Positions 1 through 23,486 of a DNA stretch of 25,195 nt are shown here, one piece after another (the first letter of the stretch is position 1; each line of letters opens with the position of its first letter). The translations under genes and the position numbers were made by a program. The notes below the pieces were generated by a model that worked only from the letters and a program-made list of their open reading frames with translations, had not been told where the DNA came from and ran no database searches. The DNA is from a virus. Lineage: Duplodnaviria > Caudoviricetes. The stretch lies in the IMG/VR virus record IMGVR_UViG_3300018757_000032, positions 1 to 25,195 of that record. The stretch is one strand, 5' to 3'.

Positions 1-351
1 GGCAAGCAGAAACGGATCAAAATAAATAAGGCCCTAAAAAAGGCACTGGCTGACTATATTAAAGATAGAGATGACCAGGAATTTTTATTTAAGAGCCGCG
101 AAGGACTAAATAAACCGATCAGCAGAAGCACGGCATACAACATATTGAAAGAGGCGGCGGAATACGTGGGGCTTGATGGCATCGGCACCCACACCATGAG
201 GAAAACGTTCGGTTATTGGCACTACAAAAAATTCAAAGATGTGGCCCTGCTGCAAGAGATATTCAACCATTCCAGCCCGGACGTCACGCTTCGATATATC
301 GGGATCACTCAAGACACAATGGACCAAACAATGGACGCATTCAGCTTGTAA
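1..351 (+). CDS. Tyrosine recombinase/integrase family protein, C-terminal part (5' truncated by window edge)
   Basis: Frame 1 is open from base 1 (GKQKRIKINKALKK...FLFKSREG...) through track ORF 145..351; it has HTMRKT (HxxR) and FNHSS...TLRYI (His and catalytic Tyr) motifs. Confidence 0.93.
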   Translation, partial: GKQKRIKINKALKKALADYIKDRDDQEFLFKSREGLNKPISRSTAYNILKEAAEYVGLDGIGTHTMRKTFGYWHYKKFKDVALLQEIFNHSSPDVTLRYIGITQDTMDQTMDAFSL

Positions 352-384
352 GCTCATCTGTCTTCAAAACGGATGAGTTTTTTT
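352..384 (+). terminator. Intrinsic terminator after the recombinase
   Basis: GCTCATCTG pairs with CGGATGAGT, followed by a T-run, immediately after the TAA stop. Confidence 0.8.
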
Positions 385-398
385 CTGCCTATTTTAAT

Positions 399-514
399 GA
401 ACTAACCATAACGAGAAAGTGTCCAACTCATTTTGGCAAAATGGCTTAAAACTATGCAGGGCAAAGGGTTCCGCGTTTCTGTGAATTGGACACAATATAA
501 GATATGGTTAATTC
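399..514. repeat. Bipartite long inverted repeat (candidate recombinase sites)
   Basis: GAACTAACCATA-N8-GTGTCCAACTCA (399-430) versus TGAATTGGACAC-N9-TATGGTTAATTC (482-514); each 12-bp arm matches the reverse complement of its partner at 11/12. Confidence 0.8.
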
Positions 515-531
515 GTGGATAATGTGGATAA
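514..531 (-). promoter_or_regulatory. Two tandem DnaA-box-like 9-mers
   Basis: CGTGGATAA (514-522, 8/9) and TGTGGATAA (523-531, 9/9), the reverse complement of the DnaA box TTATCCACA. Confidence 0.5.
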
Positions 532-564
532 ATGAAAAACAATCCGATTCACCAACAAAATGAT

Positions 565-623
565 TTGGCACAATTTTGGCGCAACGTTGGCACTCTGTTT
601 TGTTTTAGATCGGTTAATATGGT
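565..623 (+). promoter_or_regulatory. Putative activator-dependent late promoter
   Basis: TTGGC(A/G)C x3 at 565, 576 and 587 (11-bp period), then -10-like TAATAT/TATGGT at 615-623 with no good -35; position at the head of the packaging operon. Confidence 0.5.
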
Positions 624-650
624 ATTAGGTCAAAATTGAAAAGCGACTTT

Positions 651-680
651 AGGGGTGAACAAATTGTTCATCCCTTTTCT
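651..680 (+). terminator. Terminator-like hairpin containing the palindrome TGAACAA-A-TTGTTCA
   Basis: AGGGGTGAACA pairs with TGTTCATCCCT, then TTTCT. Confidence 0.55.
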
Positions 681-700
681 TATAGGGGGGGATTCCGGAG

Positions 701-868
701 ATGGAAAATGCGTATGTGGTTTTCTCGGATTATTGCGATGCTTATATAAAGTTCTTTGAAACATATAATGAAGCACAAAAGGAGTTTGCTAACCGCATCG
801 ATGATCCAAGCTGTAATAGCGTAGACACATATCTTTGTAGTGTCATGGTCTATCAGCCAGGTAAATGA
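701..868 (+). CDS. Small hypothetical protein, 55 aa (MENAYVVFSDYCDAYIKFFETYNEAQKEFANRIDDPSCNSVDTYLCSVMVYQPGK); not in the ORF track
   Basis: Translated by hand: ATG 701 to TGA 868, G-rich RBS at 685-691, stop immediately followed by repeat R1. Confidence 0.7.
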   Translation: MENAYVVFSDYCDAYIKFFETYNEAQKEFANRIDDPSCNSVDTYLCSVMVYQPGK

Positions 869-872
869 TCAG

Positions 873-907
873 GCGCTTTCCCAAGCGGGAGGGCGTCTTT
901 TTATTTG
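873..907 (+). repeat. Hairpin repeat R1 (terminator-like)
   Basis: GCGCTTTCCC-AAGC-GGGAGGGCGT-CTTTTTATTTG. Confidence 0.85.
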
Positions 908-1096
908 GGTAGCTACTGACCACGGAAGGATAACGGGTGCACACGTATATCTGGATGAAAGTTAGCGTTTCAAGGGGATTCAGTCTTAAACCCCTTGGTT
1001 TTATGTTCTCTGTAAACCGGGTCCAATGAATCTCAGATCAGACGATTGGTGGCCAATGAGGGACTCTGAGTGTGGGCCCGGTTTAGAAAGAATATA
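908..1096 (+). ncRNA. Candidate structured non-coding RNA
   Basis: No convincing ORF. Stems: 971-977/991-997, 1002-1009/1089-1096, 1013-1025/1073-1085 (13 bp), 1032-1037/1065-1070 and 1045-1049/1053-1057. G-U pairs favour the + strand. Confidence 0.6.
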
Positions 1097-1100
1097 CCAA

Positions 1101-1131
1101 GCGCTTCCCTAAATAGGAGGGCGCTTTTTTT
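1101..1131 (+). repeat. Hairpin repeat R2 (terminator-like, followed by RBS GGAGG)
   Basis: GCGCTTCCCT-AAAT-AGGAGGGCGC-TTTTTTT; compensatory C-G to T-A change at the top of the stem relative to R1/R3. Confidence 0.8.
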
Positions 1132-1145
1132 GGAGGGATTGACCT

Positions 1146-1715
1146 ATGAGCTTTGAAATGAACTTGGCACATATCAGTATTTCAGACCTGTTGGAAAAGG
1201 CAGCAGAAAAGAATGAGTTTATTTTTGTAAGATCGCAGCAAAGACGTCTTGGTAAAACAACCGCGCTTTTAGAGTTTGCGAGAAAGAATAATTATCCTGT
1301 CCTGACAAAAAGAGAGGTAGCGAGATGTTATCAGCTGGAACATCCGGATCTTAATATTATTGGATATGTGGATGGATCAGAAGTCGATGGGCTATATAAC
1401 GTCGTTTTTGATGAAGGGGTGCCGAGGGATGCGGTTAAACGTCTCTATAAGCTTGGTATTTTGCTGACTGGATTTGTTCGTGTGGATGACCAGGAAGTTA
1501 TTAATGATGATAACAGATACTCGGTATTTGATGGATATAGCACAGAAGCACCTTCGAAAAAACCACTTCTTGGGGTGAAACCGAGATCCATTCACGATGA
1601 GCAAAGAGCAGAAGAATTAAGTGGTGCTATCATGAGATATATACAAGCTAATAGGCGTATACCTACTGAATGGTTGGAAGAATACAATGAATTATTAAAA
1701 AAGATGATTATATAA
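1146..1715 (+). CDS. Hypothetical protein with degenerate P-loop NTPase-like N-domain and small helical C-domain
   Basis: 189 aa ORF, RBS GGAGG at 1132; QRRLGKTT (Walker A-like) and VVFDEG (Walker B-like). Confidence 0.75.
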   Translation: MSFEMNLAHISISDLLEKAAEKNEFIFVRSQQRRLGKTTALLEFARKNNYPVLTKREVARCYQLEHPDLNIIGYVDGSEVDGLYNVVFDEGVPRDAVKRLYKLGILLTGFVRVDDQEVINDDNRYSVFDGYSTEAPSKKPLLGVKPRSIHDEQRAEELSGAIMRYIQANRRIPTEWLEEYNELLKKMII

Positions 1716-1721
1716 AACCAC

Positions 1722-1755
1722 GCGCTTTCCCAAACGGGAGGGCGTTTTTTATTTG
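1722..1755 (+). repeat. Hairpin repeat R3 (terminator-like, followed by RBS)
   Basis: GCGCTTTCCC-AAAC-GGGAGGGCGT-TTTTTATTTG; 23/24 identical to the R1 core. Confidence 0.85.
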
Positions 1756-1770
1756 AGGGAGATGATCCAA

Positions 1771-2079
1771 ATGGAATCGAAATGCGAGTATTGCGGCGAG
1801 GTTCATGGGGTTTTATTGCGGGAGGAGAAAAGGGCTAATGGTATTGAAATTGGGTATATTCAATGCCCCGCTTGCCAGCATAGGGCCGTGTTTTCTGTGA
1901 CTACCCCACAAATTAGAGTCCTCCAAAAGCGTATGAGAGGTGTAAAGAACCAATATGCGAAAGCCAAGAGGCTAAAGAAAGCCGAGCGCCTTTTGACAGA
2001 GTATTTCAATTTAAAGGAGCGTATTGGCCTACTTATGCAGCCTTTAGTCGAGCAAGCAAATGAAGAGCTGAACCAATAA
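1771..2079 (+). CDS. Zinc-ribbon-like hypothetical protein (about 102 aa)
   Basis: CEYC...CPAC pair plus basic helical C-terminus; ATG 1771 preferred over track start 1753 because GAGGGAG lies at 1755-1761. Confidence 0.75.
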   Translation: MESKCEYCGEVHGVLLREEKRANGIEIGYIQCPACQHRAVFSVTTPQIRVLQKRMRGVKNQYAKAKRLKKAERLLTEYFNLKERIGLLMQPLVEQANEELNQ

Positions 2080-2105
2080 GTGTTTGACACTGAAGGAGGA
2101 TTACA

Positions 2106-2480
2106 ATGCCACCTAAGCCATTAAGGGAGTGTAAGGCCTACGGGTGTAAGGCCCTTACCAGGGAGGGCTACTGCCCTGACCATAAGCACGTCAAGCAGGA
2201 GGAAACGAAACATTACAACAAACATTCAAGAAACAAAACAATAACAAGTTTTTATAAATCAACTGAATGGAAACGAACAAGAGAACTTGTTTTGCTTCGA
2301 GACAATCGTCTTTGTCAGCAATGCTTGAGAGAACACCGATTCACTCCTGCCGACATGGTCCATCATATTGTGGAGGTAAAGCAGGACTGGTCCAAGCGTT
2401 TAGACCTTTCAAATCTCGAAAGTCTCTGCAATGCTTGCCATAACAAGGTTCACGGCGACCGAAGCAAGTCGGTCAAGTAG
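2106..2480 (+). CDS. Terminase-associated HNH endonuclease
   Basis: RDNRLCQQC...VHHIVE...NLESLCNACHNKVH; RBS AAGGAGG; directly upstream of terS as in cos phages. Confidence 0.93.
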   Translation: MPPKPLRECKAYGCKALTREGYCPDHKHVKQEETKHYNKHSRNKTITSFYKSTEWKRTRELVLLRDNRLCQQCLREHRFTPADMVHHIVEVKQDWSKRLDLSNLESLCNACHNKVHGDRSKSVK

Positions 2481-2483
2481 GGA

Positions 2484-2560
2484 TACCCCCCTATAAAAAT
2501 CCTTGGGAAACAACCGCCGCGGGAACGGCGCCCCCTCTTCTGCAAACAAACACCGCTTTT
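2484..2560. other. Probable cos (cohesive end) region
   Basis: Between HNH and terS: C-run at 2486-2491 then GC-rich AACGGCGCCCCCTC; GCGCCCC (2528-2534) is 6/7 to the phi105 overhang GCGCTCC as I recall it. Confidence 0.6.
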
Positions 2561-2571
2561 CAAAGTTCCCG

Positions 2572-2635
2572 AAAACAAAAAGAACCCTCCCGGCAAATTC
2601 GCCGAGAGGGCTTGATATGACTGGTTTTGTTGTTG
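2572..2635 (-). ncRNA. Candidate about 60-65 nt antisense small RNA
   Basis: On the - strand, downstream of a TG-C-TATGAT promoter: A/C-rich leader, then hairpin CCCTCTCGGC...GCCGGGAGGG and TTCTTTTTGTTTT. Confidence 0.55.
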
Positions 2636-2640
2636 CTTTC

Positions 2641-2668
2641 ATCATAGCATGAGATTGAGAAAAAACAA
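2641..2668 (-). promoter_or_regulatory. SigA-type extended -10 promoter
   Basis: Minus strand reads TTGTTT-16 nt-TATGAT with TG at the extended -10 position (TGCTATGAT). Confidence 0.6.
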
Positions 2669-2709
2669 GCACAAAATTGCAATTTTTTTAAGAAATGAGG
2701 TGAGAAAAC

Positions 2710-3225
2710 ATGCCGAGACCTGCAAAATCCGCAGCCCTTCAATTAATACAGGGCAATCCAAATAAAAAGAATACGAAAGAGCTTGCAGCCAGGGCCAAGC
2801 ATGAAAAAAAGTTGAAAATGCGCTCTGAAAATATCAAACCGCCTACCTGGCTGGATAAGGTGGCTAAAAAAGAATTTAAGCGGATTGCTGCTTTATTATC
2901 TGAGGTGGAAATTATGACGGAGGCGGATATCAGCATGTTAGCCGCCTACTGTAACGCCTATTCTCAGTACATCTCTATTACAAAAATTATTGAAGAAGAC
3001 GGCATCATGATTCATACAGAGGGTCAAGGTGAAAACGGGGAACCGGTCAAGTTGATTGGAGAAGAGCATCCCCTCCTGAAACGACAGAAAAACTTCTATG
3101 ATCAAATGAAATCGGCTGCTAATGATTTCGGACTCACACCGTCTGCACGTGCCAAGCTCGCGATCACCAGGACCCAAGAAGAACGCGAAAAAACAGCAGC
3201 GGAAAAGGAGTTCAATAATGTATGA
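2710..3225 (+). CDS. terS: Terminase small subunit (P27 family-like)
   Basis: MPRPAKS...GNPNK, PPTWL...AKKEF and FGLTPSARAKL motifs; RBS GAGGTG; overlaps terL start. Confidence 0.92.
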   Translation: MPRPAKSAALQLIQGNPNKKNTKELAARAKHEKKLKMRSENIKPPTWLDKVAKKEFKRIAALLSEVEIMTEADISMLAAYCNAYSQYISITKIIEEDGIMIHTEGQGENGEPVKLIGEEHPLLKRQKNFYDQMKSAANDFGLTPSARAKLAITRTQEEREKTAAEKEFNNV

Positions 3226-4931
3226 ATACAATTAAACAATTTATGATTGACTACTCGCGCGATGTGGTATCGGGCGAGATTGTTGCGTGTCAAAAACATA
3301 TTTGGGCTTGTGAGCGATTTTTAAAAGACATCAAAAGGGAAGGGACAAGAGAATTTCCCTACGTATTCGATGACGAGAAGGCTAGGCGTTTTCTATTTTG
3401 GATGACTCAATTTAAACATACCAAGGGGCCGTTACAAGGACAAAATATCGTTCCTGAACCTATACAGATTTTTATTTTTGGAAATGTTTATGGCTGGATT
3501 CATAAGGACACAGGTTTCCGCCGTTTCAGGAAAGTATATTGGCAAGTTGCCCGCAAAAATACGAAAACCCAAAGCCTGGCATGTGTAGGGTCCTATGAAG
3601 GTTTTGCAGACGATGAATATATGTCAGAGGTTTATATCGGGGCGACAAAAGCCGAACAGGCAAAGATATGCTGGAATGAGATCAAGGCACAAATTATGCA
3701 ATGTGATCTATTAAATAAGCCTGAGAAAAAATACAGGATAGCCTACGGCAAAATAGAACACCCAAGAACACAATCTAAAATCGAGGCGCTTTCTAAGGAT
3801 GCCGGTAAAACAGGAGACGGCTTTTCGCCCCAATGCGGCATCATTGATGAGTACCATGCGCATAAAACATCTGAAGTTTATGACGTCCTTGCTTCAGGGA
3901 TGGCAGCAAGAAACCAGCCTTTGATGGTTATTATCACGACTGCCGGCTTTGAATTAAATAATCCTGCCTACCGGGTGGAATATGATTACGTCTCTCGGAT
4001 TTTAGACCCAAACAAAGTAGAAACCAATGAACAGTATTTTGTGATGATCAATGAACTGGATAAGGGCGATGACATCAAGGATGAGCGTAACTGGATAAAA
4101 GCAAACCCTATTGTGGCTGCTAATGAACACGGGTTAGAGTATTTGCGCGGCGAGCTTGAAGTAGCTCTCGCGGTTCCTGAAAAAATGCGTAATTTCCTCA
4201 CTAAAAATATGAATATCTGGGTCAATATGCGCGAAAACGGCTATATGGATATGCAGGCCTGGAAAGATTGCGGGTCCGATCAATTCCCTGATCTAAATGG
4301 CCGAGAGTGCTATGTTGGGATTGACTTATCAAAACGAATTGACCTGACAGCTGTCTCCTTTATTTTCCCATTGGATAATGGGAGCTTTGCTGTAGAGAGT
4401 CACGGTTTTATGCCAGAAGATACATTTTATGAGCGTATGAAGACAGATAATGTACCTTATGATTTGTGGAGGAAAAAGAATTGGTTAACCGTCACCGATG
4501 GCGCTGTTGTCGATTATGACTATATCAGAACCTACATTAAAAAAATGGAGAAAGAGAAAGGGTGGCGAATCAAAGAAATTGGTTACGATCCGTATAATGC
4601 TACACAATTTGCCCAACAGATGGAGGCTGACGGATATGTCATGATTGAAATTCGACAGGGTGTTGCTACATTATCTGAACCAACGAAAGACTTCCGTGAA
4701 AAAGTAAAGGCCAAGAAGATCATTCACAATAAAAATGATCTGCTGACATGGGCCATGGGGAATGCCATTACAAAAGTAGATGCCCAGGAAAACATAATGC
4801 TGGACAAGTCAAAGTCAACACAACGGATTGACCCGGCGGCTGCGCTTATCAATGCACACGTGCGGGCTTCGCAAATTGATACGGCCGTTGACTTAAACGC
4901 TTATATACAATCTGGATCGTTCAGCCTGTAG
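3222..4931 (+). CDS. terL: Terminase large subunit
   Basis: 569 aa; ARKNTKT Walker A variant, IIDEYH Walker B, ITTAG motif III, GIDLS...D nuclease motif, RIDPAAA. Confidence 0.96.
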   Translation: MNTIKQFMIDYSRDVVSGEIVACQKHIWACERFLKDIKREGTREFPYVFDDEKARRFLFWMTQFKHTKGPLQGQNIVPEPIQIFIFGNVYGWIHKDTGFRRFRKVYWQVARKNTKTQSLACVGSYEGFADDEYMSEVYIGATKAEQAKICWNEIKAQIMQCDLLNKPEKKYRIAYGKIEHPRTQSKIEALSKDAGKTGDGFSPQCGIIDEYHAHKTSEVYDVLASGMAARNQPLMVIITTAGFELNNPAYRVEYDYVSRILDPNKVETNEQYFVMINELDKGDDIKDERNWIKANPIVAANEHGLEYLRGELEVALAVPEKMRNFLTKNMNIWVNMRENGYMDMQAWKDCGSDQFPDLNGRECYVGIDLSKRIDLTAVSFIFPLDNGSFAVESHGFMPEDTFYERMKTDNVPYDLWRKKNWLTVTDGAVVDYDYIRTYIKKMEKEKGWRIKEIGYDPYNATQFAQQMEADGYVMIEIRQGVATLSEPTKDFREKVKAKKIIHNKNDLLTWAMGNAITKVDAQENIMLDKSKSTQRIDPAAALINAHVRASQIDTAVDLNAYIQSGSFSL

Positions 4932-4940
4932 GGGGTGGAA

Positions 4941-5135
4941 ATGCTGAAATTTCTAAGGTTCTTGCAGTTGATTTTAGAGGATATCTTGCTGCTCGCAGGC
5001 ATGGTATTCATTTCAATAGCCATATATCGGATGAACGTAAACGCGGGTTTAATTGCAACCGGTGTTTTTTTATTCTCTCTTGCCAGCTTGGCAGGATTCG
5101 TTCGTCAAAAAAATAAGGATGAGGGAGGGAAATAG
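4941..5135 (+). CDS. Small two-TM membrane protein between terL and portal
   Basis: Two hydrophobic stretches; ATG 4941 after GGGGGTG (track start GTG 4935). Confidence 0.75.
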   Translation: MLKFLRFLQLILEDILLLAGMVFISIAIYRMNVNAGLIATGVFLFSLASLAGFVRQKNKDEGGK

Positions 5136-6446
5136 ATGCTATTAAGCCGTTTAAAGAGCGGAATAAAAAATGAAATTGCTGAAGAGGATAGCGGTTTCCT
5201 TCTCCATCCGGCTAATTGGTTTAAAAATATTTTTGCTGGAACAGAAAGTTCATCTGGTGAAAGGGTATCAACAAAAACGGCTGTTTTGCATCCGGATGTA
5301 TATGCTTGTGTGATTGTTTTGGCTGATGATATTGCGAAACTGCCAATTAAGCTTTTTCAGAACCAAAACGGCAACATACAACAGGTTCAAAATAAAGTAA
5401 GCGGCATTATTCTAAACAAAGTGAATGACTACATGACAAGCTTTGTATGGAAAAGGCTGTTGGTTACGAGACTTTGCACTTGGGGAAACAGCTATAATCT
5501 TTTGCTTTTTGATAAAGACGGGAATGTGGCTGGGATCAGAGCATTAGACCCTGAAGCGACAAATACGAATATTGATCCAAATAACGGCCGGGTATGGTAT
5601 TCAACCACACTTGACGGCAAGTACCGTGAATTTTTTTACGAAGAGGTACTGCATTTTAAAAACCTGTCTCTTGACGGAATTGTAGGTCAAACCCCGATTT
5701 CAGTTATTCGGGACAATATAGGGTCAAATAGAGCTGCCACAAAATTTAACGCGAAATTTTACAAGAATGGTGGCGCACCGTTTGGCGTTGTAAAAGCGCC
5801 GACTCTTTTAGACCGAAAAAGCAAACAAATTCTTAGGGAAGATTGGGAGCGGGTGAATGCGGGGCAGTCTATTGCAGTTTTAGACGCCGGGCTTGATTAT
5901 TCACAAGTAACAATGCCCATGAAAGATGCCCAATTTATTGAGTCGATGAAATGGAATCGCCAACAGATTGCATCGATTTACAAGGTGCCGCCTCATAAAA
6001 TAGGGGAGCTTGATCGGGCGACATTTTCAAATATAGAGCAACAGTCCTTAGATTATGTCAAAACCACTTTACAGCCAATCGTCACAAATATTGAACAAGA
6101 ATTAAACGATAAGGTTTTGACAGAGAAGCAACGGGGAGCAGGATATTACTTTAAATTTAACCTGGAATCAGAGCTTCGCGGGGATAGTAAATCACGTGCT
6201 GAATTTTATAAAACGATGCAAAGTGTCGGCGCCTTTAGCGTTAATACTATTCTTCAAAAAGAGGACATGACAGGTATCGGGGAGATCGGCGATGAGCATT
6301 ATGGAAACTTAAACCTAGTTCCCCTTTCAATTATGAAAGAGTATCAACTAAGCAAGGTCAAACGGTCTTCAAATCGCCTGAAAGGGGGTGATGGCAACGG
6401 AACAGAAGAAGAAAAACAAGTATTGGAACATGAAGGTTCTGAATGA
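5136..6446 (+). CDS. Portal protein (HK97 family)
   Basis: VYACV..LADDIAKLP, EVLHFK...DGIVGQTPI, IASIYKVPPHKIG, FSNIEQQ; position after terL. Confidence 0.95.
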   Translation: MLLSRLKSGIKNEIAEEDSGFLLHPANWFKNIFAGTESSSGERVSTKTAVLHPDVYACVIVLADDIAKLPIKLFQNQNGNIQQVQNKVSGIILNKVNDYMTSFVWKRLLVTRLCTWGNSYNLLLFDKDGNVAGIRALDPEATNTNIDPNNGRVWYSTTLDGKYREFFYEEVLHFKNLSLDGIVGQTPISVIRDNIGSNRAATKFNAKFYKNGGAPFGVVKAPTLLDRKSKQILREDWERVNAGQSIAVLDAGLDYSQVTMPMKDAQFIESMKWNRQQIASIYKVPPHKIGELDRATFSNIEQQSLDYVKTTLQPIVTNIEQELNDKVLTEKQRGAGYYFKFNLESELRGDSKSRAEFYKTMQSVGAFSVNTILQKEDMTGIGEIGDEHYGNLNLVPLSIMKEYQLSKVKRSSNRLKGGDGNGTEEEKQVLEHEGSE

Positions 6447-7119
6447 TTCGTCCGCTGAAATCACGCTTTACGGTTCGATAACTGGCGAAGGCTGGTTCAG
6501 TGAAAGTTCATCTAAAGCCTTTCAGTCTGAATTGAAAAGTTTAGGTGACGTGAGCTTTATTGATTTGTACATCAATTCGCCTGGTGGGGATGTTTTTGAG
6601 GGGCAGGCTATTCATTCGATGCTTCAGCGTCACAAGGCAAAAATCAATGTCTATGTGGATGCACTGGCTGGAAGTATTGCTTCTGTCATTGCAATGGCCG
6701 GCGATAAAATTACGATGCCGAGTAACGCCATGATGATGATTCACAACCCATACATGGGGATGGTCGGGAATGCCGCGGAATTCCGGAAGGCAGCCGATGA
6801 TCTGGATAAGATTACTGAAAGTATCGTTTCCACATATCTTGCGAAAGCAGGAGACAAACTGGACGACGGGACTTTACGCCAGCTGCTGGATGAGGAAACC
6901 TGGCTCACCGCCGATGAAGCTTTAAATTATGGTTTGATCGATATGGTTTCAGAATCAAAGGATGTAGCAGCCTGCATTGATCATCAGGTACTGGCACATT
7001 TTAAACATGTTCCAGGCAAAATTGTTGCTCAATCCGCTGCTGAAAGTCCGGCAGAAACTAAGCCGGATGAATTACTAAAACAAAAGATCAATATGAAACT
7101 TGAACTCTTAAATCTTTAA
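6391..7119 (+). CDS. ClpP-type head maturation protease (start uncertain)
   Basis: INSPGGDVFEG, ALAGSIASVIAMAGD, MMIHNP and ETWLTADEA motifs of the S14 family. Confidence 0.93.
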   Translation: MATEQKKKNKYWNMKVLNDSSAEITLYGSITGEGWFSESSSKAFQSELKSLGDVSFIDLYINSPGGDVFEGQAIHSMLQRHKAKINVYVDALAGSIASVIAMAGDKITMPSNAMMMIHNPYMGMVGNAAEFRKAADDLDKITESIVSTYLAKAGDKLDDGTLRQLLDEETWLTADEALNYGLIDMVSESKDVAACIDHQVLAHFKHVPGKIVAQSAAESPAETKPDELLKQKINMKLELLNL

Positions 7120-7132
7120 GGGTTCTTTTTTT
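7102..7132 (+). terminator. Terminator-like hairpin between protease and capsid
   Basis: GAACTCTTAA-ATCT-TTAAGGGTTC-TTTTTTT. Confidence 0.7.
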
Positions 7133-7158
7133 ATGCCATTTCTAAGGAGGACAAGCAT

Positions 7159-8439
7159 TTGAAACATAAAAAGTTAATGAACCTTGATATTCAATTTTTT
7201 GCCGGGGGCGGGATGTCCAAAAAAGAACGAGAATTGCGCCAGACCTTGGCGGAAAAACGTACAAAAATTGAAGCGCTGACCGATGAAGGGAAAATGGATG
7301 AAGCCAAAAAACTACTTGCAGAGGCTCAACAAATTAAAGATCAAATTCAGACATATGAAGATATCCGAAATATGCAGGTTTCATACGAACAGGAAGAGCC
7401 GCAGCATGATCCAGAGACAAAGAACCCGCAACAACCAACGGATGATATCGCTAAAACAGAAGTGAAGAACCATGTTCAGCTTTTTGCTTCCGCCCTTAAA
7501 ACAGGAAAGGTACCGCAGCCACTGGCTGCAATGAAAGAAGGTGTGGATGAGGACGGTGGCCTTATTGTCCCGCAAGATATCTCCACGAAAATTAATGAAA
7601 AACGACGTCAATTTGATACCCTGGCAAATCTCGTCGATGTCATTCCGGTATCAACAAACAAGGGTTCACGGGTTCTTGAAAAATTATCAGATATCACCCC
7701 ATTGGCAAACCTTGAGGAATTAGAAAATATTGAAGAGTTAGAGAATCCTAAGTTTGAAAACATTAAATATAACATCAAAGACTATGCCGGGATTTTGGTT
7801 CTTTCAAACGATTTGCTTGCAGATACACAGGAAGCGCTCTTACAGTATCTAACGACTTGGTTGGCGAAAAAATCAGCCGTAACCCGCAATACGTTGATCC
7901 TTAATCAATTGGGGACCCTTGCAAAAACAACGGTTTCAAAACAGGACGACATTAAAGACATTCTTAATGTCAAACTTGATCCAGCTATTAATGCGACAAC
8001 TAAAGTTGTCACAAACCAATCCGGCTTTAATATGTTGGATAAACTGAAAGACGCGTTCGGCCGCTATCTACTTCAGCCGAATCCTACAGACCCGACGAAA
8101 AAGTTGTTGTTTGGAAAGCCGGTTTCTGTGATTTCTGATAAGTATTTGCCGAGCAACGGCACAAAAACACCAAAACATCCGTTAATCATCGGAGACCTTA
8201 AAGAAGCCGTTAAACTGTTTGACCGCCAGCAGTATTCCATTTTAACGACAAATGTCGGTGGTAAAGCATTCTACCGTAACTCTACAGATGTGCGAATCAT
8301 TGAACGTGAGGACGTAGTCCTATGGGATACAGATGCGGTGGTTTACGCGGAATTTTCATCAATTAAAGATGCAGTTCCTGACAATGAAACTCCAAGCGCT
8401 GGCGGCTCAGAAGATAAATCAGTTGATGTTGGAAAATAA
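7159..8439 (+). CDS. Major capsid protein (HK97 fold, N-terminal coiled-coil delta domain)
   Basis: TTG start with AAGGAGG; DGGLIVPQDI, LKDAFGRYLLQP, LFGKPV and IIGDLKEA motifs. Confidence 0.95.
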   Translation: MKHKKLMNLDIQFFAGGGMSKKERELRQTLAEKRTKIEALTDEGKMDEAKKLLAEAQQIKDQIQTYEDIRNMQVSYEQEEPQHDPETKNPQQPTDDIAKTEVKNHVQLFASALKTGKVPQPLAAMKEGVDEDGGLIVPQDISTKINEKRRQFDTLANLVDVIPVSTNKGSRVLEKLSDITPLANLEELENIEELENPKFENIKYNIKDYAGILVLSNDLLADTQEALLQYLTTWLAKKSAVTRNTLILNQLGTLAKTTVSKQDDIKDILNVKLDPAINATTKVVTNQSGFNMLDKLKDAFGRYLLQPNPTDPTKKLLFGKPVSVISDKYLPSNGTKTPKHPLIIGDLKEAVKLFDRQQYSILTTNVGGKAFYRNSTDVRIIEREDVVLWDTDAVVYAEFSSIKDAVPDNETPSAGGSEDKSVDVGK

Positions 8440-8461
8440 TAAAAGAAAAGGATGAGGAAAA

Positions 8462-8887
8462 ATGGCAGATCAATTTTTAAACCAAAGCAATGGTGTTTAT
8501 ACTTCCGCAGAGGACGACGGCACAGGAAAACCGGTAACGCCTGTTTACTTGAAAGGCAACAGTGAAGATAATCCTTTATACATCAAAGGGATGCCGGGGG
8601 AACCTGGGCCGCAGGGACCCCAAGGTCCAAAAGGCGACAAGGGGGATAAAGGCGAACCAGGTCCGCAAGGTGAACAAGGACCACAAGGCCCGAAAGGTGA
8701 CAAAGGCGATCCGGCTGAAATTGGAGAGAAAAGTATCCTACATGAAATGCTTGCGGACAAGTCTGTTAGAAGCAACAACATCGGAACCGGCAGTGTCATG
8801 CCGGATCACTTTAACAGCGAAGTAAAGGCCATTTTTGAAGACCTACAAAAGCAAATTGATGAGCTCAAAGGCGGTTCATCTAGTTAA
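8462..8887 (+). CDS. Collagen-like repeat protein (putative head fibre/decoration)
   Basis: 14 consecutive Gly-X-Y triplets (8588-8713) and a C-terminal coiled coil; directly after the capsid gene. Confidence 0.85.
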   Translation: MADQFLNQSNGVYTSAEDDGTGKPVTPVYLKGNSEDNPLYIKGMPGEPGPQGPQGPKGDKGDKGEPGPQGEQGPQGPKGDKGDPAEIGEKSILHEMLADKSVRSNNIGTGSVMPDHFNSEVKAIFEDLQKQIDELKGGSSS

Positions 8888-8907
8888 CGAAAGATAGGTG
8901 ATGCCCT

Positions 8908-9210
8908 ATGACTGAAACCCAACAAAAAGAGCTTGAAGAGGTGAAAAAATTCCTCCGGGTCGATGGTGATCTGGAGGATGATTTAATTCTTGGGTTTATC
9001 GCTTCAGCAAAAGAATACATTACGACCGCAACGGGCCTGAAATTCCCAAATAATTCAGCTCGCGCAGATTTGTGTGTAAAGGCTTTTGTAACTCACTGGT
9101 ATGAAAACCGTGAAATAGCTGGCACAACTTCAAACCTTGATGGAGTTTTGACAACGTTGATCAATCAATTAAAATACACAGTTCCGGAGACTGAGGCCGA
9201 TGCTGAATGA
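8908..9210 (+). CDS. Head-tail connector (gp6-like)
   Basis: LEEVKKFLRVDGDLEDDLI...VTHWYENRE. Confidence 0.9.
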   Translation: MTETQQKELEEVKKFLRVDGDLEDDLILGFIASAKEYITTATGLKFPNNSARADLCVKAFVTHWYENREIAGTTSNLDGVLTTLINQLKYTVPETEADAE

Positions 9211-9508
9211 CATGCGATATCGAATCAAGTTTCAAAAGAAAAAAGAAGGCGGCCGTCTCCCTGTGGAAGGTGAATATGAAACTATCGTTGAATGCTGGGC
9301 AAAAGCTGAAGGATTAAAAGGCCGGGAATACTATGCAGCGGCGGCTGTACAAAAAGAACATACAGTAAAATTTACGATCCGACACCGAGAGGATATCGAC
9401 AAACATATGCGGATTCTGTTTCAGAACCAATCATATGAGATCGAATCAATTCTTCCGAACTATTCCCGAAGAAATTTCACCACAATCAGGGCAAAGGCGG
9501 TGGAATAA
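9200..9508 (+). CDS. Head closure / head-tail adaptor (SPP1 gp16-like)
   Basis: CWAKAEGLKGREYYAA...FTIRHR...MRI...YEIESI; gene order. Confidence 0.88.
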   Translation: MLNDMRYRIKFQKKKEGGRLPVEGEYETIVECWAKAEGLKGREYYAAAAVQKEHTVKFTIRHREDIDKHMRILFQNQSYEIESILPNYSRRNFTTIRAKAVE

Positions 9509-9906
9509 TGAAAATCGAAATGGAAATGCAGGGCTTTAAAGAATTAGATTCATATTTATCTTCACTTGCAAGAAAGGACGAAAAAATAAATAAAGCCACT
9601 GTGAAAGCCGGCGGCGCGATTCTTGCAAAGGAAATTAACAAGAATGCTCCCCGTTCCAATATTGGGGGGAGCCATCCTCACATTGATGAAGATATCATAG
9701 TCGGTAATCGTACGAGAAAGGACCCCGATGGTGAGATATATGCAGTGGTCGGCCCTACAAAAGATACAAAATACCGTGTCCACTTACCTGAGTTCGGTAC
9801 TATCCATCAACCGGCTAACCCGTTTATTCAGCAGAGTATGAAAAGTGCAAATGATCGAATGCTTGAAGCGATGGTAGCCGTTATCAGGAAAGGGTACAAG
9901 CTATGA
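9508..9906 (+). CDS. HK97 gp10-like tail component
   Basis: GFKEL...NAP...EFGTIHQPANPFI. Confidence 0.88.
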   Translation: MKIEMEMQGFKELDSYLSSLARKDEKINKATVKAGGAILAKEINKNAPRSNIGGSHPHIDEDIIVGNRTRKDPDGEIYAVVGPTKDTKYRVHLPEFGTIHQPANPFIQQSMKSANDRMLEAMVAVIRKGYKL

Positions 9907-10286
9907 ATGTGGCAGAGAGAGCATTACAACTAAAAAACAGAGTATTTGAAGCGCTGGAAACTGATCCGGCGCTTTTATTATTGGCTGATCCTGCAAACAT
10001 TTTTGAACTTGCGGTACCGATTGGTATCAAAAGCAAACCGCCTTATATCGTCGTACAGGAATTGGAGTACAGAACTACCAAGTGGGCTGACGGAAAGCCG
10101 ATCAAGGACAGTTCTGTATATCAAATCGATGTATACAACGCTTCTTCCTGCGATCAGATTTTGGCTGCCGTTGTTGGGGTCATGAATCGATTGGGTTTTC
10201 AAACATCGGTTTTAATCAATGGCTTTTTAAAAGATGAAGGGCTGATCCGGAAAGGTTACCGGTTTGAGGCCAATATTTTAATATAA
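9903..10286 (+). CDS. Tail completion/terminator protein
   Basis: PPYIVV...YQIDVY...MNRLGF; immediately before the major tail gene. Confidence 0.8.
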   Translation: MNVAERALQLKNRVFEALETDPALLLLADPANIFELAVPIGIKSKPPYIVVQELEYRTTKWADGKPIKDSSVYQIDVYNASSCDQILAAVVGVMNRLGFQTSVLINGFLKDEGLIRKGYRFEANILI

Positions 10287-10300
10287 TTGGAGGTTTAAGA

Positions 10301-10918
10301 ATGCCTGAATACAGTTCAGTTACCGGATTGGAAGGCGTTAAATTTGCGCCTTTAAAAAAGGAAAATGGCTTTTATGTAGCTACAAAAATTATTGATTACC
10401 CTTACGCAATTAACGCAAAGGTCAATACGGAAACATCAACAGAAAAGCAGTATGCAGACAACAAACTGGTGGATATGGCTGTCACGACTGGTTCCACAAA
10501 ATTGGAGCTTGAAATGCGGGATCTGCCAATGGAAATTTTGGAGGAATTGTTTGGGATAGAAGAAACAGACGGGATCTATATGTTCAAAAAGAATGTTATC
10601 GCGCCATGGGTTGCTATGTCTTTCTATGGGCCAAAAGCGAACGGCAAGAATCGCCATGTAGGCTTAGTGAAAGGGCGTTTTTCTCTTCCGGATGATGAAT
10701 GGAAAACAAAAGAAGAAAAGACAGACTTCCAAACAGTCAAACTTTCTGCTGAATTTATGGAACGAGAACAGGATGACATCTATAAAGTATTGGCTGATGA
10801 GGACGCACCGAATTTCAGCTTGGACAAGTTTTATGAAAAAGTGTTTGGCGATGCTTATAAAAATCCGGACTCAGGCTCTGATAATAAATCCAGCGTAGAC
10901 ATTGGAAAGACAGTATAA
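10301..10918 (+). CDS. Major tail (tube) protein, phi13-like family
   Basis: GLEGVKFA, QYADN, LVKGRFSLP..EWKTKEE; gene order; RBS GGAGG. Confidence 0.9.
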   Translation: MPEYSSVTGLEGVKFAPLKKENGFYVATKIIDYPYAINAKVNTETSTEKQYADNKLVDMAVTTGSTKLELEMRDLPMEILEELFGIEETDGIYMFKKNVIAPWVAMSFYGPKANGKNRHVGLVKGRFSLPDDEWKTKEEKTDFQTVKLSAEFMEREQDDIYKVLADEDAPNFSLDKFYEKVFGDAYKNPDSGSDNKSSVDIGKTV

Positions 10919-10942
10919 AGGGAAGCTCCGTGCTTCTTTTTT
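10919..10942 (+). terminator. Terminator-like hairpin after major tail gene
   Basis: GGAAGC-TCCGT-GCTTCT followed by a T-run. Confidence 0.55.
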
Positions 10943-10971
10943 AAATCTAGCAAAATAAAGGAGGAGTCAAC

Positions 10972-11337
10972 ATGGCTCAAAAACAAATTTCGGTTAAATT
11001 ATGGTTTGAAAAAGAAGAAAAATACAAAACATTTATTGCACCTCGCACAAATACAAAAACTTTGTATGAAGCTCTTGAGTTAGATGAGGCAGCCGCTAAA
11101 AATACCAACAGTATTAAGGCAGTGCTTAAAAGCCTTGAAGATCGTATGAAATTCATTGTGCGTGTATTCCATAATCAATTTACTTTAGAGGAATTTCAAG
11201 AAGGCCTTCAGTCCTTTGAAGTTTCAAACGAAGTAAGGCGAATCATGGGCGAAATTATGGGTTATGAGGAAGTTAAGGAGGAAGAAGATTTTTTATCGGC
11301 AGCGGAAGCGGAGGCCTTTCGGCAGAAAAAGGAATAG
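10972..11337 (+). CDS. Tail assembly chaperone (gpG-like)
   Basis: Between major tail and tape measure; RBS AAGGAGG; slippery T TTT TTA at 11289-11295. Confidence 0.85.
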   Translation: MAQKQISVKLWFEKEEKYKTFIAPRTNTKTLYEALELDEAAAKNTNSIKAVLKSLEDRMKFIVRVFHNQFTLEEFQEGLQSFEVSNEVRRIMGEIMGYEEVKEEEDFLSAAEAEAFRQKKE

Positions 11338-11483
11338 AACAGCTCAATGATTTATATGCGGCCCTTTTAAAACAGGGATGGACCATGACTGAAATTGACG
11401 AGATGGATATTTACCATTACTTAGAAGTCATGGCTCATGAAAATAAACCAAAAGTTGTTCCAATTGATCAAGTGTTTTTCTAA
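11295..11483 (+). CDS. gpT-like extension reached by -1 frameshift (gpGT fusion 10972..11483, about 170 aa)
   Basis: The -1 frame is open from the slippery site: IGSGSGGLSAEKGIEQLNDLYAALLKQGWTMTEIDEMDIYHYLEVMAHENKPKVVPIDQVFF*. Confidence 0.82.
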   Translation: MGSGSGGLSAEKGIEQLNDLYAALLKQGWTMTEIDEMDIYHYLEVMAHENKPKVVPIDQVFF

Positions 11484-11509
11484 GACTGGCTTTATCGCCG
11501 GTCTTTTTT
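11483..11509 (+). terminator. Terminator-like hairpin before tape measure
   Basis: AGACTGGC-TTTATC-GCCGGTCT-TTTTT. Confidence 0.65.
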
Positions 11510-11545
11510 CGTTGAGTTTATGCCAGGGAAGCGGGGTGGATACAT

Positions 11546-14500
11546 ATGGCGCAACCTATCGGAAATATGATTATTAAAGTAGGCCTTGATGATACCGGCT
11601 TTAATCGTGGAATTGAAGGTTTAAAGCGGCAAATGCGTTTAGCGAATTCGGAAATGAAAGCATCCGGTGCAGTTTATAAAGCTGCGGGAAATCAGTCAAA
11701 GTTTCTTCAATCGCAAGTAGAAGGACTCAATAACAAATACCGCATACAAGGCCGTTTAGTAGATGAGCATCGAACAAAATACAATAAGTTAGTCAGAGAA
11801 AAAGGGCTGGACAACCGAGAAACGCAGATACAAGGTCGCCGGCTGAATGATGCAATTGCCGTTCACCAAAGCCTTGGAAATGAACTGCAACGAGTAACAA
11901 AACTATTTGAAAATACCACAAACAGCACCCGGCGAGCAGCGGGTGTTTTTTCTGTGTTTAAGCGTAATTCAGGAGAAGTATCTAAAGAGCTAAACGCGGT
12001 GTATCAATCAGCTACAACCGCCGGAAAGGCTCTTTCTGCTATCGGTGCAGCAGGAACTTTGGGAATCGGCATGTCTGTTAAAGCCGCAGCTGATTTTGAG
12101 AAAGCGATGAGCCGCGTAAGTGCTTTGGCAAATGCAACAAATGATCAAATGGGTGAGCTTACAAAAACAGCCCGTCATTTGGGTGCAACAACTCAATATA
12201 CAGATGGGCAAGTGGCAGAAGGTATGCAGTACCTTGCGATGGCCGGATATAAAACAAATCAAATTATCGGGGCTATGCCTGGCCTTCTCGCGACTGCCGC
12301 AGCTGGTCAAACAGACCTTGGAGTTACGGCCGATATCGTTTCTGACATTTTGACTGAATTTCATATCAAGGCTGAAGATACAAACCGTGTTGCGGATGCA
12401 ATGACATATACTTTTACGAATTCAAACGCCACCCTGCAAGAAATCGGGCAAACAATGAAATATGCAGCACCGGCCGCAAAAACAGCGGGAGTCAGTATGG
12501 AGGAATTGGCGGCGGCAACCGGTATCATGGCAAACAGCGGGATTAAAGCCGATATGGCAGGAACGGCTTTAAGGTCTACCTTGACGCGACTCTCTGCACC
12601 ACCAAAACCAGCTGCATCAGCGATTGAAGAGTTGGGTCTAAAAGTTACAGATTCAACCGGTAGAATGCGTCCGCTTGCTGATATTATCGGACAAATCAAT
12701 GAGAAAACAAAAGATTATACCGAAACTGAGCAAATTCGTATTGCAAAACAGCTGGCGGGGCAACATGCGCTTTCCGGTTTTATTACCTTAATGCACGCCG
12801 GGAAAGATAAGCTTCAAGAATTCACAAAAGAAGTTGAAGGAAGCGGCGGCACAGCTGAAAGAGTAGCCAAACAGCAAATGGACAACCTGGCTGGCTCTAT
12901 TGATTATCTTAAATCTGCTACAAACAATGCTGTTATCACTTTTGGAAATCAGTTCTTACCTGTTATCCGGGCTACAGCTGACGGACTAACGAAGCTTGTA
13001 ACCTGGTTTGATTCATTGCCCCCTTCCGTTGCGAGCACTATTGCAATTACTGGCGGAGCCGTCACTGTATTTTCACTATTAGGTGGCGCGTTCTTACTAT
13101 TGCTTGGCTCATTGCCAAAGGTAGCAGCAGGCTGGAATATGCTTCGGACCGCGGGCGGGTATTTAACACGGAATGTAAATCAAGCATCAGCCAGTCTTGG
13201 GGTTTATTCTACGGAAGCCATTGCAGCGGGCGCAGCTTCCAGAACAGCGGCTGCAGGAATGACAACAACATCTGCGGCGGCTGCGGCAGCATCCACACGA
13301 ATGGGACGTTTTCATCAGTCAGCCAATCTGGCAACAACCAGAGTCGGGAGGCTCGAACAATCATCCAGCAGAAGTGCTAAAGCCATGCGGGGCCTGGGCG
13401 GTGCTTCACGTGTTGCCGGCGTTGGTCTTGGATTGTTTGGCGGACCAGTTGGTTCAATTGCCGGGCTAATTCTTTCATTTGCTCCTGAACTCTTAAAATT
13501 CGGCGGGAGTATTTTAAAGGTTGGAGCCAATGCAATTAAAGGCGCCGGCGGCTTTATGAATTTAGCAAAAAGCGGTTTTGGCCTATTCAACATTCTCAAA
13601 AAAGGAGCAGGAGTTGTCGGCCTTTTACGTAGCGGATTGAGCTTGTTAGGTGGTCCTGTTGGTCTTGCTGTAACAGGAGTGACACTTTTAACCGAAGCTG
13701 GTACAAAGTATTATGACAATCTGAAGAAAAGGGTTCTTCCATCGACTATTGATTTTGGTGAGGGAGTATCGAAGGCAACTGCAAAAGCTGTGAATGCTTA
13801 TGAAGATATGAATATTAAAGTCACAGCAAAGCTCAATACCCTTCGAGCAACAAATACAAAGATCACCAAGGATATTGCCGATGATGTGACAAAGCAATTC
13901 ACTGAAATGGGAGACTCGTTGAAAAAGGGATTTCAAACAAGTGCCGATTCAGCCACCAAAGTGTTACAAGATTTTTATGCTTCAAATGATAAAACATCAG
14001 ATAAAGAAGCAGCTAAAATTCTCAATAAAATCAAAAATGGGAATGATAAGAAGCAGAAAGAAATACAAGGTTATGTGGATCGGGTAAATGAAATTTACAG
14101 AACCGCGGCTGAAGAGAATCGTAAAACAACAGCAAAAGAAAATAAGGAAATAGCAGAGATACAGGGGAAAATGTTGGCTCAAATGGAGACAGCTCTTACT
14201 CGAAGCAAGGACGAACAAATTAAAATTTCAAGAAAGCTGAAGGAAGAATCCTCTAACCTATCTGCTAAACAGGCTGCTGCTGTAGTAAAAAATAGTAATA
14301 AAGCAAAAGAAAAAACAATAAAAGCAGCCGAAAAGCAGCGCGATTCTGTTATTGCTGCTGCTGATGATCAGTATTATGTAAAAGGCACAATTTCAAAGGA
14401 AGAGCACGATGACACTGTTGAAAAAGCAAGAAGCCAAACCAAAAAAACAATTAAGCAAGCAGAAAAGACGCATCAAGGTGTAGTCAAGGAGGCAAAGCTT

Positions 14501-16015
14501 CAAGCTTATGGACATCTTGATCAAGTTGATTTTGAGACAGGTGAAGTCCTTAATAAATGGGATATTTTTGTCCTCGACTTAGCTGGTGTTGTGAATAAGA
14601 TTACCGGTGGAATTAACACGGTTCTTGAATTTATGCATGCCCCAACCATTCCAGAGTGGAAGCCTAAAGGTTATAATGGCCGGTCTGAAAAAATGCAAAT
14701 TGCGCCTGGGGCTAATTATGCGAAAGGGACAGACTTTCACCCTGGAGGAAAAGCGCTTGTTGGTGAAGAAGGATGGGAGCTTGCACATACACCAGGCGTC
14801 GGAACTTATGTTGTAGGGGCAAGCGGCCCGCAAATTTGGGACCTACCGCGCGGAACATCTGTACTTCCTCATGATCAGTCAAAAGAGCTTGCGGCTTCGG
14901 GGCTTCCTGGGTATGCAGGCGGGGTTGGCGACTTTTTCAAAAAAGCTGCTGAAGGCTCTAAGAAAATGGTCAACGGAGCAATTTCTTTCGGAAAAGGTGT
15001 TGTGGACAGAGTCGGGGATGTTAGTTCAAGCGCTATGGACTTGATTATTAACGGTCCCGGTAAATTGATTAAAAAACTTTTTAGCGGGCTAATACCATAC
15101 AAATCAGGAAAAGGCATTGATTCGTTTGGAACCGGTATATTCAAGACCTTAAAAAATGGGGCAACTGAATTTTTGAAAGGAGTCATGCCAGAGCCGTCCA
15201 CATTTAAAGGGACCGGAGGAACGAAATCCGTAAACCAATGGGTGACAGAGGCTGTAGGTTTAGCGGGGGTACCTCTTTCATGGATTCCAGGGCTTGTGAC
15301 CATCGCCATGAAGGAAAGCGGCGGAAATCCAAATGCTATCAACTTATGGGATTCCAACGCGAAAGCAGGCCATCCTTCACAGGGATTGATGCAGACGATC
15401 CCGAGCACTTTTAACGCAAATAAGTTTCCTGGTCATAACAACATTTTGAATCCGATAGATAATACGTTGGCTGCAATTAACTATATCAAGCGCAGATATG
15501 GAGACATTAGCAATCATCCAGGCTTAAAATCAATGGCCCGGGGTGGCGGCTATGTTGGTTATGCAAAAGGCGGTATCTCGCCAGGTCGAGGCGGCTCAAA
15601 ATGGGCCGTTTTAAATGAACGAGGGTATGATGAAACAACCATCACGGAAGACCCTTCATATAGGGAGCGTAATATTGGGCTATGGACTCGGATAGGTAGT
15701 AAGCTTGGCGTACTTCCGGATTTGCAGGATGGGATGATTTCAAAAGCACTTCTCCTGCTTCAAAAAGTTTCGGCAAAACCTGAACAAGAGCTGTCACCAT
15801 CTAATGATTTTTCTGTGGACATTAGCCGTGTTGTAAAGAATCAAGAAAAACAAATCAGTATGATGGCAAAGCAGATTGATTTTCTAAATAAAAATGTGCA
15901 GCTCTTGCAGCAGCTTTTACTTAAAGACAACAACACATATCTGGATGGCAGAAAAATTGACCAATCAGCCGGGGATCGGTTTACTCGAACTTCATTTATA
16001 AACGGGGTGAGATAG
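11546..16015 (+). CDS. Tail tape measure protein with C-terminal lytic transglycosylase (SLT) domain
   Basis: 1489 aa, Ala/Gly-rich, TP901-type core ([11 protein letters not shown]...[12 protein letters not shown]); [10 protein letters not shown]...GLMQ...[11 protein letters not shown] near the C-terminus. Confidence 0.95.
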
Positions 16016-16851: not shown

Positions 16852-16863
16852 GGAGCATGTAAA

Positions 16864-18576: not shown

Positions 18577-18590
18577 GCGTTTTTTTATTT
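18562..18590 (+). terminator. Terminator-like hairpin after Tal
   Basis: AAAACGCT...GGCGTTTT followed by a T-run. Confidence 0.55.
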
Positions 18591-18612
18591 TGTCAAAAAG
18601 GGAGTGATGAAC

Positions 18613-21258: not shown

Positions 21259-21271
21259 AGGAGGCTCATTG

Positions 21272-22621: not shown

Positions 22622-22633
22622 GAGAGATAAGTC

Positions 22634-22957
22634 ATGAAAAACATTTTTAAATATGACAAAGAGACGTTCTTGTTGATTGATAATGATATCATTCAGCCTG
22701 ATGATCAAGGGAACTATGAAATTCCGGATGGATGGACAGACATTCCTTTTGACCCTGGTTTATATCTTCCGAAGTTTTATCCGGACGAAAAGGTGTGGAA
22801 GGAATCGGCTACAAAAGAGTATATTGAAAGCTTGCAGCCTCCGGAGCCTGAAGCGAGTGAAATTGAGCTATTAAAAAAGCAAAATGCTTTACTCTCTTAT
22901 CAATTGGCCCGTCTTCAAAAAGAAGTTGCATCATTGAAAGGTGATGGTTCTTCATGA
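22634..22957 (+). CDS. Small tail-associated protein (XkdW/YomQ-like)
   Basis: IPDGWTDIP...GLYLPKF...WKESATKEYIESL plus C-terminal coiled coil; precedes an XkdX-like gene. Confidence 0.7.
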   Translation: MKNIFKYDKETFLLIDNDIIQPDDQGNYEIPDGWTDIPFDPGLYLPKFYPDEKVWKESATKEYIESLQPPEPEASEIELLKKQNALLSYQLARLQKEVASLKGDGSS

Positions 22958-23139: not shown

Positions 23140-23154
23140 GGGTGTTTTTATTTT
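23128..23154 (+). terminator. Terminator-like hairpin before the lysis cassette
   Basis: AGCGCCC-GATAA-GGGTGTT-TTTATTTT. Confidence 0.6.
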
Positions 23155-23201
23155 GCCTCAAAGGAGGTGAAAACGATGTGAGAACAGGAGGATTAGGGGA
23201 C

Positions 23202-23471: not shown

Positions 23472-23486
23472 GGAGGAAAACACAAT

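Follow-up and report, generated by a model that had tools for sequence, protein, structure and literature searches.

An integron is made up of the integrase IntI, the attI and attC sites and the Pc promoter, while moron or defence hotspots are a familiar feature of temperate phages. In T4-type phages, PeSL motifs, which combine a terminator with a ribosome-binding site, mediate gene shuffling, according to the parts of two papers drawn on here (Arbiol et al. 2010, PMC2839356; Comeau et al. 2014, PMC4122927). The late promoter of the ArpU regulator of phage FL2A carries three 7-nt direct repeats, as described in the relevant part of PMC3753634. Here we analyse IMGVR_UViG_3300018757_000032, the late region of a phi105-like Bacillus phage with the gene order HNH, terminase, portal, head, tail, lysis. 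The window (the whole stretch analysed, 25,195 nt) is the entire virus record, and its 5' edge cuts into a tyrosine recombinase gene. A hairpin repeat, R, occurs three times (R1, R2, R3; Table 1) in the leader between the recombinase and HNH genes, and the initial annotation took the leader for a possible integron-like cassette array, by analogy only. We propose, with a probability of roughly two in three, that the R copies are terminator-like hairpins that act as short-homology joints for swapping accessory genes between related phages, independently of the recombinase, around a conserved RNA hairpin, E, which forms the core of the leader.

A search of the whole window with up to three mismatches returned the R consensus at three places only, each time as an exact match; 100 shuffled sequences gave none. 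R1 and R3 agree at 23 of 24 positions and thus deserve the description "near-identical" given to all three, which overstates the case for R2 (18/24 and 19/24 against the other two). The repeats begin 4 nt (R1) and 6 nt (R3) past a stop codon, R2 and R3 lead through a T tract straight into a GGAG-type ribosome-binding site, and the open reading frames (ORFs) described between them are present in the ORF listing. All three copies are terminator-like by score, with folding energies of -20.1, -14.3 and -16.5 kcal/mol for R1, R2 and R3, and R is predicted to be a hairpin that stops transcription. Five Bacillus genomes contain 2, 1, 0, 3 and 7 copies (up to two mismatches; the reversed control gave none), and all 13 lie within 1.5 kb of an E hairpin. 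A generic host terminator is ruled out by these low numbers and by the proximity to E. The literature searched, mainly outside subscription journals, held no description of R, of E or of antitermination in ArpU phages.

Table 1. Coordinates of the features of the leader and of the start of the late operon in the window.
Feature	Positions	Strand	Remarks
Tyrosine recombinase, 3' part (116 aa) of a 180-aa catalytic-domain-only protein	1-351	+	phrog_216, PF00589
Terminator-like hairpin behind the recombinase gene	350-380	+	conserved
Recombinase-associated conserved block	398-531	.	two inverted ~35-bp arms (398-432, 480-516), then tandem 9-mers (514-531)
P, ArpU-activated late promoter	565-635	+	predicted; 7-nt direct repeats at 565, 576 and 587; -10 hexamer at 615
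T0, promoter-proximal terminator-like hairpin	651-675	+	between promoter and 55-aa ORF; fourth such hairpin
55-aa ORF	701-868	+	no known family; rare cargo, one other lineage (L082)
R1	873-896	+	terminator-like hairpin and T tract
M	899-996	+	optional conserved non-coding module between T-tract microhomologies
E	998-1098	+	conserved covarying RNA hairpin, 100 nt; basal stem like the Bacillus rRNA processing stalk
R2, T tract and ribosome-binding site	1101-1136	+	repeat proper 1101-1124
189-aa chimeric ORF	1146-1715	+	two fused families; junction near 1557-1565
R3, T tract and ribosome-binding site	1722-1761	+	repeat proper 1722-1745
Zinc-ribbon protein	1771-2079	+	phrog_1315
HNH endonuclease	2106-2480	+	conserved late operon start
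Terminase small subunit (terS)	2710-3225	+	conserved late operon start

Related loci were gathered with the HNH gene (79), the R pattern (22), E patterns and the recombinase (42); most loci from the E-pattern scans were chance matches and were removed by a profile filter. Of the 165 loci mapped, 98 have a complete leader (from arpU to HNH or terS), which amount to 69 distinct sequences. The names on closely related loci are B. paralicheniformis, B. glycinifermentans and B. haynesii, thus the host of the window phage is probably a member of the B. licheniformis group. The 69 leaders show 60 architectures and 126 ORF families, 80 of them seen once (ORF calling and clustering were made for this analysis, and a few families may be spurious), so leader content is far from invariant, as the initial annotation had anticipated. 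R is absent from 25 leaders, occurs once in 37 and twice in seven; three copies are found in no complete leader besides the window.

The 53 distinct occurrences of R have 13 classes of upstream flank. Two of these classes, one being the end of E and the other the C-terminus of a family of 161-aa proteins, are each found across R from three different downstream genes (zinc-ribbon, P-loop and a third one), so that all six combinations exist, which requires exchange within R and its ribosome-binding site. Since the downstream flank classes were over-split (three of them are M), only this six-combination result was used. Breakpoints, defined as sites at which homology to the window begins or ends, are distributed in line with exchange at the repeats, though not exclusively: of 92 distinct ones, R copies account for 29, E edges for 30, the stretch behind the recombinase block for 14, P for 11, the 189-aa ORF for seven and the vicinity of cos for one. 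The expectation that breakpoints would lie at the repeat is borne out for the 29 at R copies and not for the E-edge, promoter and in-ORF breakpoints. Five relatives, four of them without the recombinase, have the order E-R-zinc ribbon-HNH, the layout expected from a deletion between R2 and R3. Contigs from four of five RNA runs (shares 0.05-0.07) show joints such as 1096 to 1723, which are evidence of neither rearrangement nor expression because the contigs mix related phages.

Several points weigh against R as an exchange joint: (i) selection on a conserved element surrounded by variable cargo would also place breakpoints at its edge; (ii) the four-combination test was passed by one upstream pair only; (iii) 183 of 293 cargo ORFs are preceded by another gene and not by any module; and (iv) a rearranged molecule of the window phage was not seen. 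A different explanation holds that the R copies are conserved regulatory terminators only; illegitimate or microhomology recombination would alter the cargo at any place, and the breakpoints at R edges would be those that selection spares. It would accommodate the 30 breakpoints at E edges, the 25 at other conserved blocks and the seven inside an ORF, the origin of the window's own R2-R3 unit in an in-ORF fusion, and the apparent loss of M at T-tract microhomology. However, it does not account for the six of six flank combinations across R, nor for an identical 24-mer in front of 10 unrelated families when other leader terminators vary freely, and we regard it as unlikely, albeit worth serious consideration. 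Our preferred reading, exchange by short homology, one of the two modes named in the initial annotation, is supported as a PeSL-like variant involving several shared modules: R copies, two of them fused to ribosome-binding sites, would let neighbouring accessory genes swap by ordinary recombination between related phages, and R would be one among several shared joints together with the promoter, E, a cargo-promoter module and T tracts.

The initial annotation had drawn an analogy to integrons. In a true integron-like mechanism, insertion, removal and shuffling of cassettes at R (or E) under one promoter would be the work of the tyrosine recombinase. The likeness is real in outline: a tyrosine recombinase gene, confirmed by the family assignment of its tail, lies beside a candidate site, a single upstream promoter and variable, hairpin-bounded genes, R and E both form hairpins, and R heads 10 gene families. 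Variable cargo does lie under one upstream promoter, yet many cargo genes of the relatives have a promoter-like module of their own, and cargo genes also occur upstream of the promoter. The recombinase is not IntI (the integron-integrase model TIGR02249 gives 34 bits on the 180-aa protein, against a cut-off of 265), and no attC-type core pair, judged by the consensus, was found on either strand of positions 1-2100. Of the 31 leaders that have the recombinase, 25 contain R and 24 contain E; of the 38 that lack it, 19 contain R and 29 contain E, and 13 loci with a recombinase 79-82% identical keep P and variable cargo but neither R nor E. In phi105, whose genome aligns to window positions 873-1095 at 70% and in which the counterpart of R is annotated as a terminator, R, M and E are all present and there is no such recombinase in this region. 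Neither does R delimit a cassette array: 25 of the 69 leaders lack it, it stands in front of just 41 of the 293 cargo ORFs and of members of 10 of the 126 families, and the R2-R3 unit is a chimera with an in-ORF junction rather than an intact cassette. We therefore reject the integron-like reading, which we consider very improbable.

The recombinase appears to have a site of its own. Its tail is identical at 115 of 116 residues to the full-length L012 protein, and in relatives its gene directly follows arpU, which itself lies outside the window. The block of inverted arms and tandem 9-mers behind the gene is colinear across 42 distinct aligned sequences (three of them diverged), and none of the 92 breakpoints lies inside 398-516; the 14 nearest lie just past the arms, at 522-540. 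The block is thus likely the recombinase's own site and no crossover point for cargo; at a guess, the two may serve multimer resolution. A FimB-type invertible switch at the arms was considered and dropped: all 20 hits have the segment between them in one and the same orientation, and 10 minus-strand hits traced to a palindrome-containing query were all lost with a palindrome-free one. The tandem 9-mers, which we take to resemble DnaA boxes, close the block in most relatives and cargo begins immediately after them. In L384, L387 and L393 a cargo gene apparently lies between the recombinase gene and the inverted-arm block.

P, the predicted late promoter, has a single copy in the window and is present in 29 of 31 recombinase-bearing leaders. 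It shows the layout described for FL2A, with three 7-nt direct repeats, arpU upstream in relatives and terS downstream, and ArpU is predicted to activate it. A hairpin with a T tract lies within 85 nt of the -10 hexamer in 53 of 65 distinct P copies (4 of 120 in shuffles), starting mostly 18-24 nt past it. In place of T0, relatives have R or a hairpin akin to it. The most plausible reading of R is a promoter-proximal terminator that was copied downstream, because 19 of the 65 hairpins behind P are R itself (a hand count from the list) and many others look related; it would have arisen as a terminator-like hairpin about 20 nt past the -10. In a lysogen, the R copies might shield the late operon from leaky and cargo-driven transcription. 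No sigma-70-type promoter was detected in positions 1-4000, where 8.2 are expected, which agrees with the single upstream promoter of the initial annotation; late transcription would therefore have to pass T0, R1, R2 and R3, i.e. lytic transcription would need to read through four terminator-like hairpins. Leaky termination is a possible route.

A terminator just behind the promoter is also found in the comparable layouts of lambda Q and AlpA, as far as the part of PMC7969949 relied upon goes. A Q/AlpA-type binding element between -35 and -10 was not found at P, where the ArpU repeats end 21 nt before the -10, upstream of the -35. The structural model of ArpU (pLDDT 83.5) matches sigma region 4 weakly, with no Foldseek match at an expectation value of 0.001 or below, and neither Q nor AlpA is among the listed Foldseek matches. 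ArpU as a homologue of Q or AlpA is thus unsupported by sequence or Foldseek. The Ltr literature searched, including the main text of PMC3753634, does not mention antitermination. Two further observations concern the region behind the promoter. Compared with L082:2615-2670, window positions 640-660 look like a short deletion that fused two hairpins. Recombinase-free leaders contain a different conserved non-coding block of ~250 nt right behind the late promoter (L103:2430-2640, which is phi105, L252, L237, L037, L178 and L038), a candidate structured RNA with no Rfam match.

The segment between R1 and R2, described as structured in the initial annotation, does fold well (z -4.2), but it consists of two separable modules, M and E. 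At -43.1 kcal/mol (z -5.65), the fold of E is more stable than that of its complement by 10 kcal/mol. Across 56 non-redundant copies, pairing extends to 96.9% of alignment cells, with 98 both-side changes, and across 23 more diverged copies to 90.3%, with 75 both-side changes; none of 500 shuffles came up to these figures and slid controls reached 34-57%, though the counts are inflated by shared ancestry. All or part of E is present in 58 of 63 leaders (six distant leaders set aside), in the cultured phages phi105, yong1, A9Y and rho14 and in 32 of 49 genomes of the genus Bacillus; across the order, 4 of 141 sampled genomes gave a hit, two weak and two from the genus. Among 20 diverged hits, 14 lie before terminase genes of other types, two before HNH, one before a holin and endolysin, one in a decayed prophage and two in ordinary chromosomal regions. 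In 100 of 103 contexts a hairpin precedes E, and E begins at its T tract (7 of 40 in shuffles). No Rfam family matched the window or 12 relatives at the gathering score; Phe_leader (25.9 bits against 55) reflects the hairpin-then-terminator layout only. The "putative" promoter annotated at E in the phi105 record L35561 was also discarded, the hexamers being poor and the element covarying as RNA.

The basal stem of E resembles the processing stalks of host rRNA. RNase III cuts flank the opposed G-G of the stalk. According to the relevant part of PMC4838370, the rRNA stalks of Bacillus are RNase III substrates. The 5' arm of E is identical to the rRNA stalk arm at 11-13 of 15 positions in 55 of 56 copies, and the opposed G-G is found in 54 of 56. 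In one genome, a matrix of the E 5' arm picked the stalk arms of the 23S spacer (13.9 bits) and the 16S leader (7.1 bits) as the top two sites at each of four rRNA loci, with a background of up to 6.6 bits. These data suggest that E, the leader's conserved core, may be a stem that is processed by RNase III and imitates the host rRNA stalk, a proposal to which we give even odds. Other results argue to the contrary: the 16S-leader site scores barely above background and the 23S-spacer site alone stands clear, the 3' arm of E scores 5.2 bits at the stalk, inside a background of 3.5-8.1, and the rRNA comparison was picked only after E had been inspected. Moreover, E is not universal: among the 63 close leaders 5 lack it, as do 14 of the 42 loci anchored by the recombinase.

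The same likeness could be taken to mean that E is a cis-acting antitermination RNA (boxA/nut-like or put-like) that lets RNA polymerase pass R2 and R3 as well as the terminators further down the 22-kb late operon. The 5' arm resembles a 15-mer of the rRNA leader and spacer, which we take to be the Bacillus boxA, copies of this arm alone persist, E precedes terminase genes of unrelated modules, and terminator-like hairpins stand between late genes (e.g. 7102, 11482, 18562, 23127 and 23749). The precedent is rrn boxA, which nucleates antitermination according to the part of PMC8632103 used here. However, E cannot relieve T0 or R1 because it sits downstream of both, its regular position being behind a hairpin and U tract; the 5' arm meets its pairing partner within 90 nt; and positions 4000-23999 hold little more terminator-like sites overall than chance would give (27 versus 19.7 +/- 4.6). 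A matrix scan of E-less leaders found no boxA-like site above background. The boxA-like letters are paired inside the stem, and the most diverged copies (L431, L432 and L435) lose them but keep the stem with its G-G. RNase III processing is favoured over antitermination because diverged copies keep the stem and not the boxA letters, and because E lies behind the first terminators; an antitermination function of E is therefore unlikely. Likewise unlikely is a wider scheme in which the late operon of Bacillus temperate phages would be under an unrecognised antitermination system, with the ArpU-proximal terminator and the R copies silencing it and E, as a boxA-stalk copy, recruiting the host rRNA antitermination or processing machinery to late mRNA.

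Fragments comprising only the first ~33 nt of E are seen at L027:2564-2596 and 3425-3457, L183, L293 and L406:2501-2534, mostly fused at a 4-nt overlap to a 57-nt repeated module, here named Q; L027 has a tandem duplication of the E-fragment/Q unit with a trypsin-like gene. Q, which does not occur in the window, heads 42 of 293 cargo ORFs (L027:3454-3515 and ~100 other sites in relatives). It opens with a heptamer that we take for a Spo0A box and its 3' end is a -10-like hexamer, and it is likely a shared stationary-phase cargo promoter and a further exchange joint. M is found in 12 of 69 leaders, its 11 distinct copies always between a T tract and E or an E remnant; L082 lacks it and has the order 55-aa ORF-R-E. 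Two segments of M seem to covary, and a pseudoknot drawn by hand and partly mis-registered (50.8% paired) was unsupported.

The P-loop-like ORF named as one unit in the initial annotation is real; however, two gene families are fused inside it. Residues 1-139 of the 189-aa protein come from phrog_21294, a small family of P-loop-like proteins, and share 83% identity with the L087 P-loop protein; residues 138-189 derive from the C-terminal end of a 161-aa protein unrelated to that family and share 85% identity with the tail of the L017 protein. The zinc-ribbon gene is the commonest leader gene (29/69) and occurs both with and without a preceding R; spore-coat CotD-like genes come second (14/69, e.g. 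L001:4221-4442 and L045:3172-3489). Pfam was scanned with 104 of 125 family representatives and PADLOC with 71 plus the three leader ORFs of the window. Relatives gave hits to DarTG, HicAB, a MazF-like toxin, SocA, RelA/SpoT, SLATT, TIR, PIN, Tad2-like and CotD-like proteins, and most scanned families had no Pfam or PADLOC match. Outside the leader, collagen-like and 33-nt tandem repeats (8597-8722 and 21794-21910) lie in tail-fibre and minor tail genes and are ordinary.

Two outcomes stand out in interest, namely the apparently uncatalogued E RNA and the terminator that follows the late promoter. As a structured RNA without an Rfam family, E is common to four cultured phages and to prophages with unrelated terminase modules. 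The hairpin behind most P copies raises the question, for phi105 as well, of how ArpU/Ltr phages, described as controlled by an activator only, read through.

With the known systems the locus shares some features and differs in others. The leaders of relatives, like moron and defence hotspots, carry defence genes, and the leader appears to be a place where many defence and counter-defence genes gather, the majority from no known family; the three ORFs of the window have no PADLOC match. From integrons it differs in its recombinase and in the lack of attC cores, of any dependence of the array on the recombinase and of breakpoints at the recombinase site. P resembles the Ltr/ArpU promoters, as portrayed in the part of Quiles-Puchalt et al. 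2013 (PMC3753634) at hand, in its three 7-nt direct repeats and in the terS gene downstream; unlike in those, the promoter is followed by 1.5 kb of cargo with four terminator-like hairpins before HNH is reached. E shares a long imperfect stem, the basal helix sequence and the opposed G-G with the RNase III stalks of Bacillus rRNA and the phage SP82 sites (PMC4838370, in the part cited), whereas it folds locally, as a hairpin of 100 nt within the late mRNA of a phage, immediately follows a terminator-like hairpin and is cleaved by prediction only. The closest counterpart of R is PeSL. According to the sections of PMC2839356 and PMC4122927 referred to above, PeSL is, like R, a repeated intergenic stem-loop terminator (termination at R being predicted) that ends in a ribosome-binding site, lies in a hyperplastic region and serves as an exchange point between unrelated genes, and gene replacement maps to R, as it does to PeSL, by flank reassortment and breakpoints. 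PeSL, as described there, carries a strong sigma-70 promoter, exists in many copies and yields mini-circles, whereas R has no such promoter, is known here from sequence alone and numbers zero to three copies per phage in the late leader of a temperate phage of a Gram-positive host. Gene swapping mediated by R would thus extend the PeSL idea to the temperate phages of Gram-positive bacteria.

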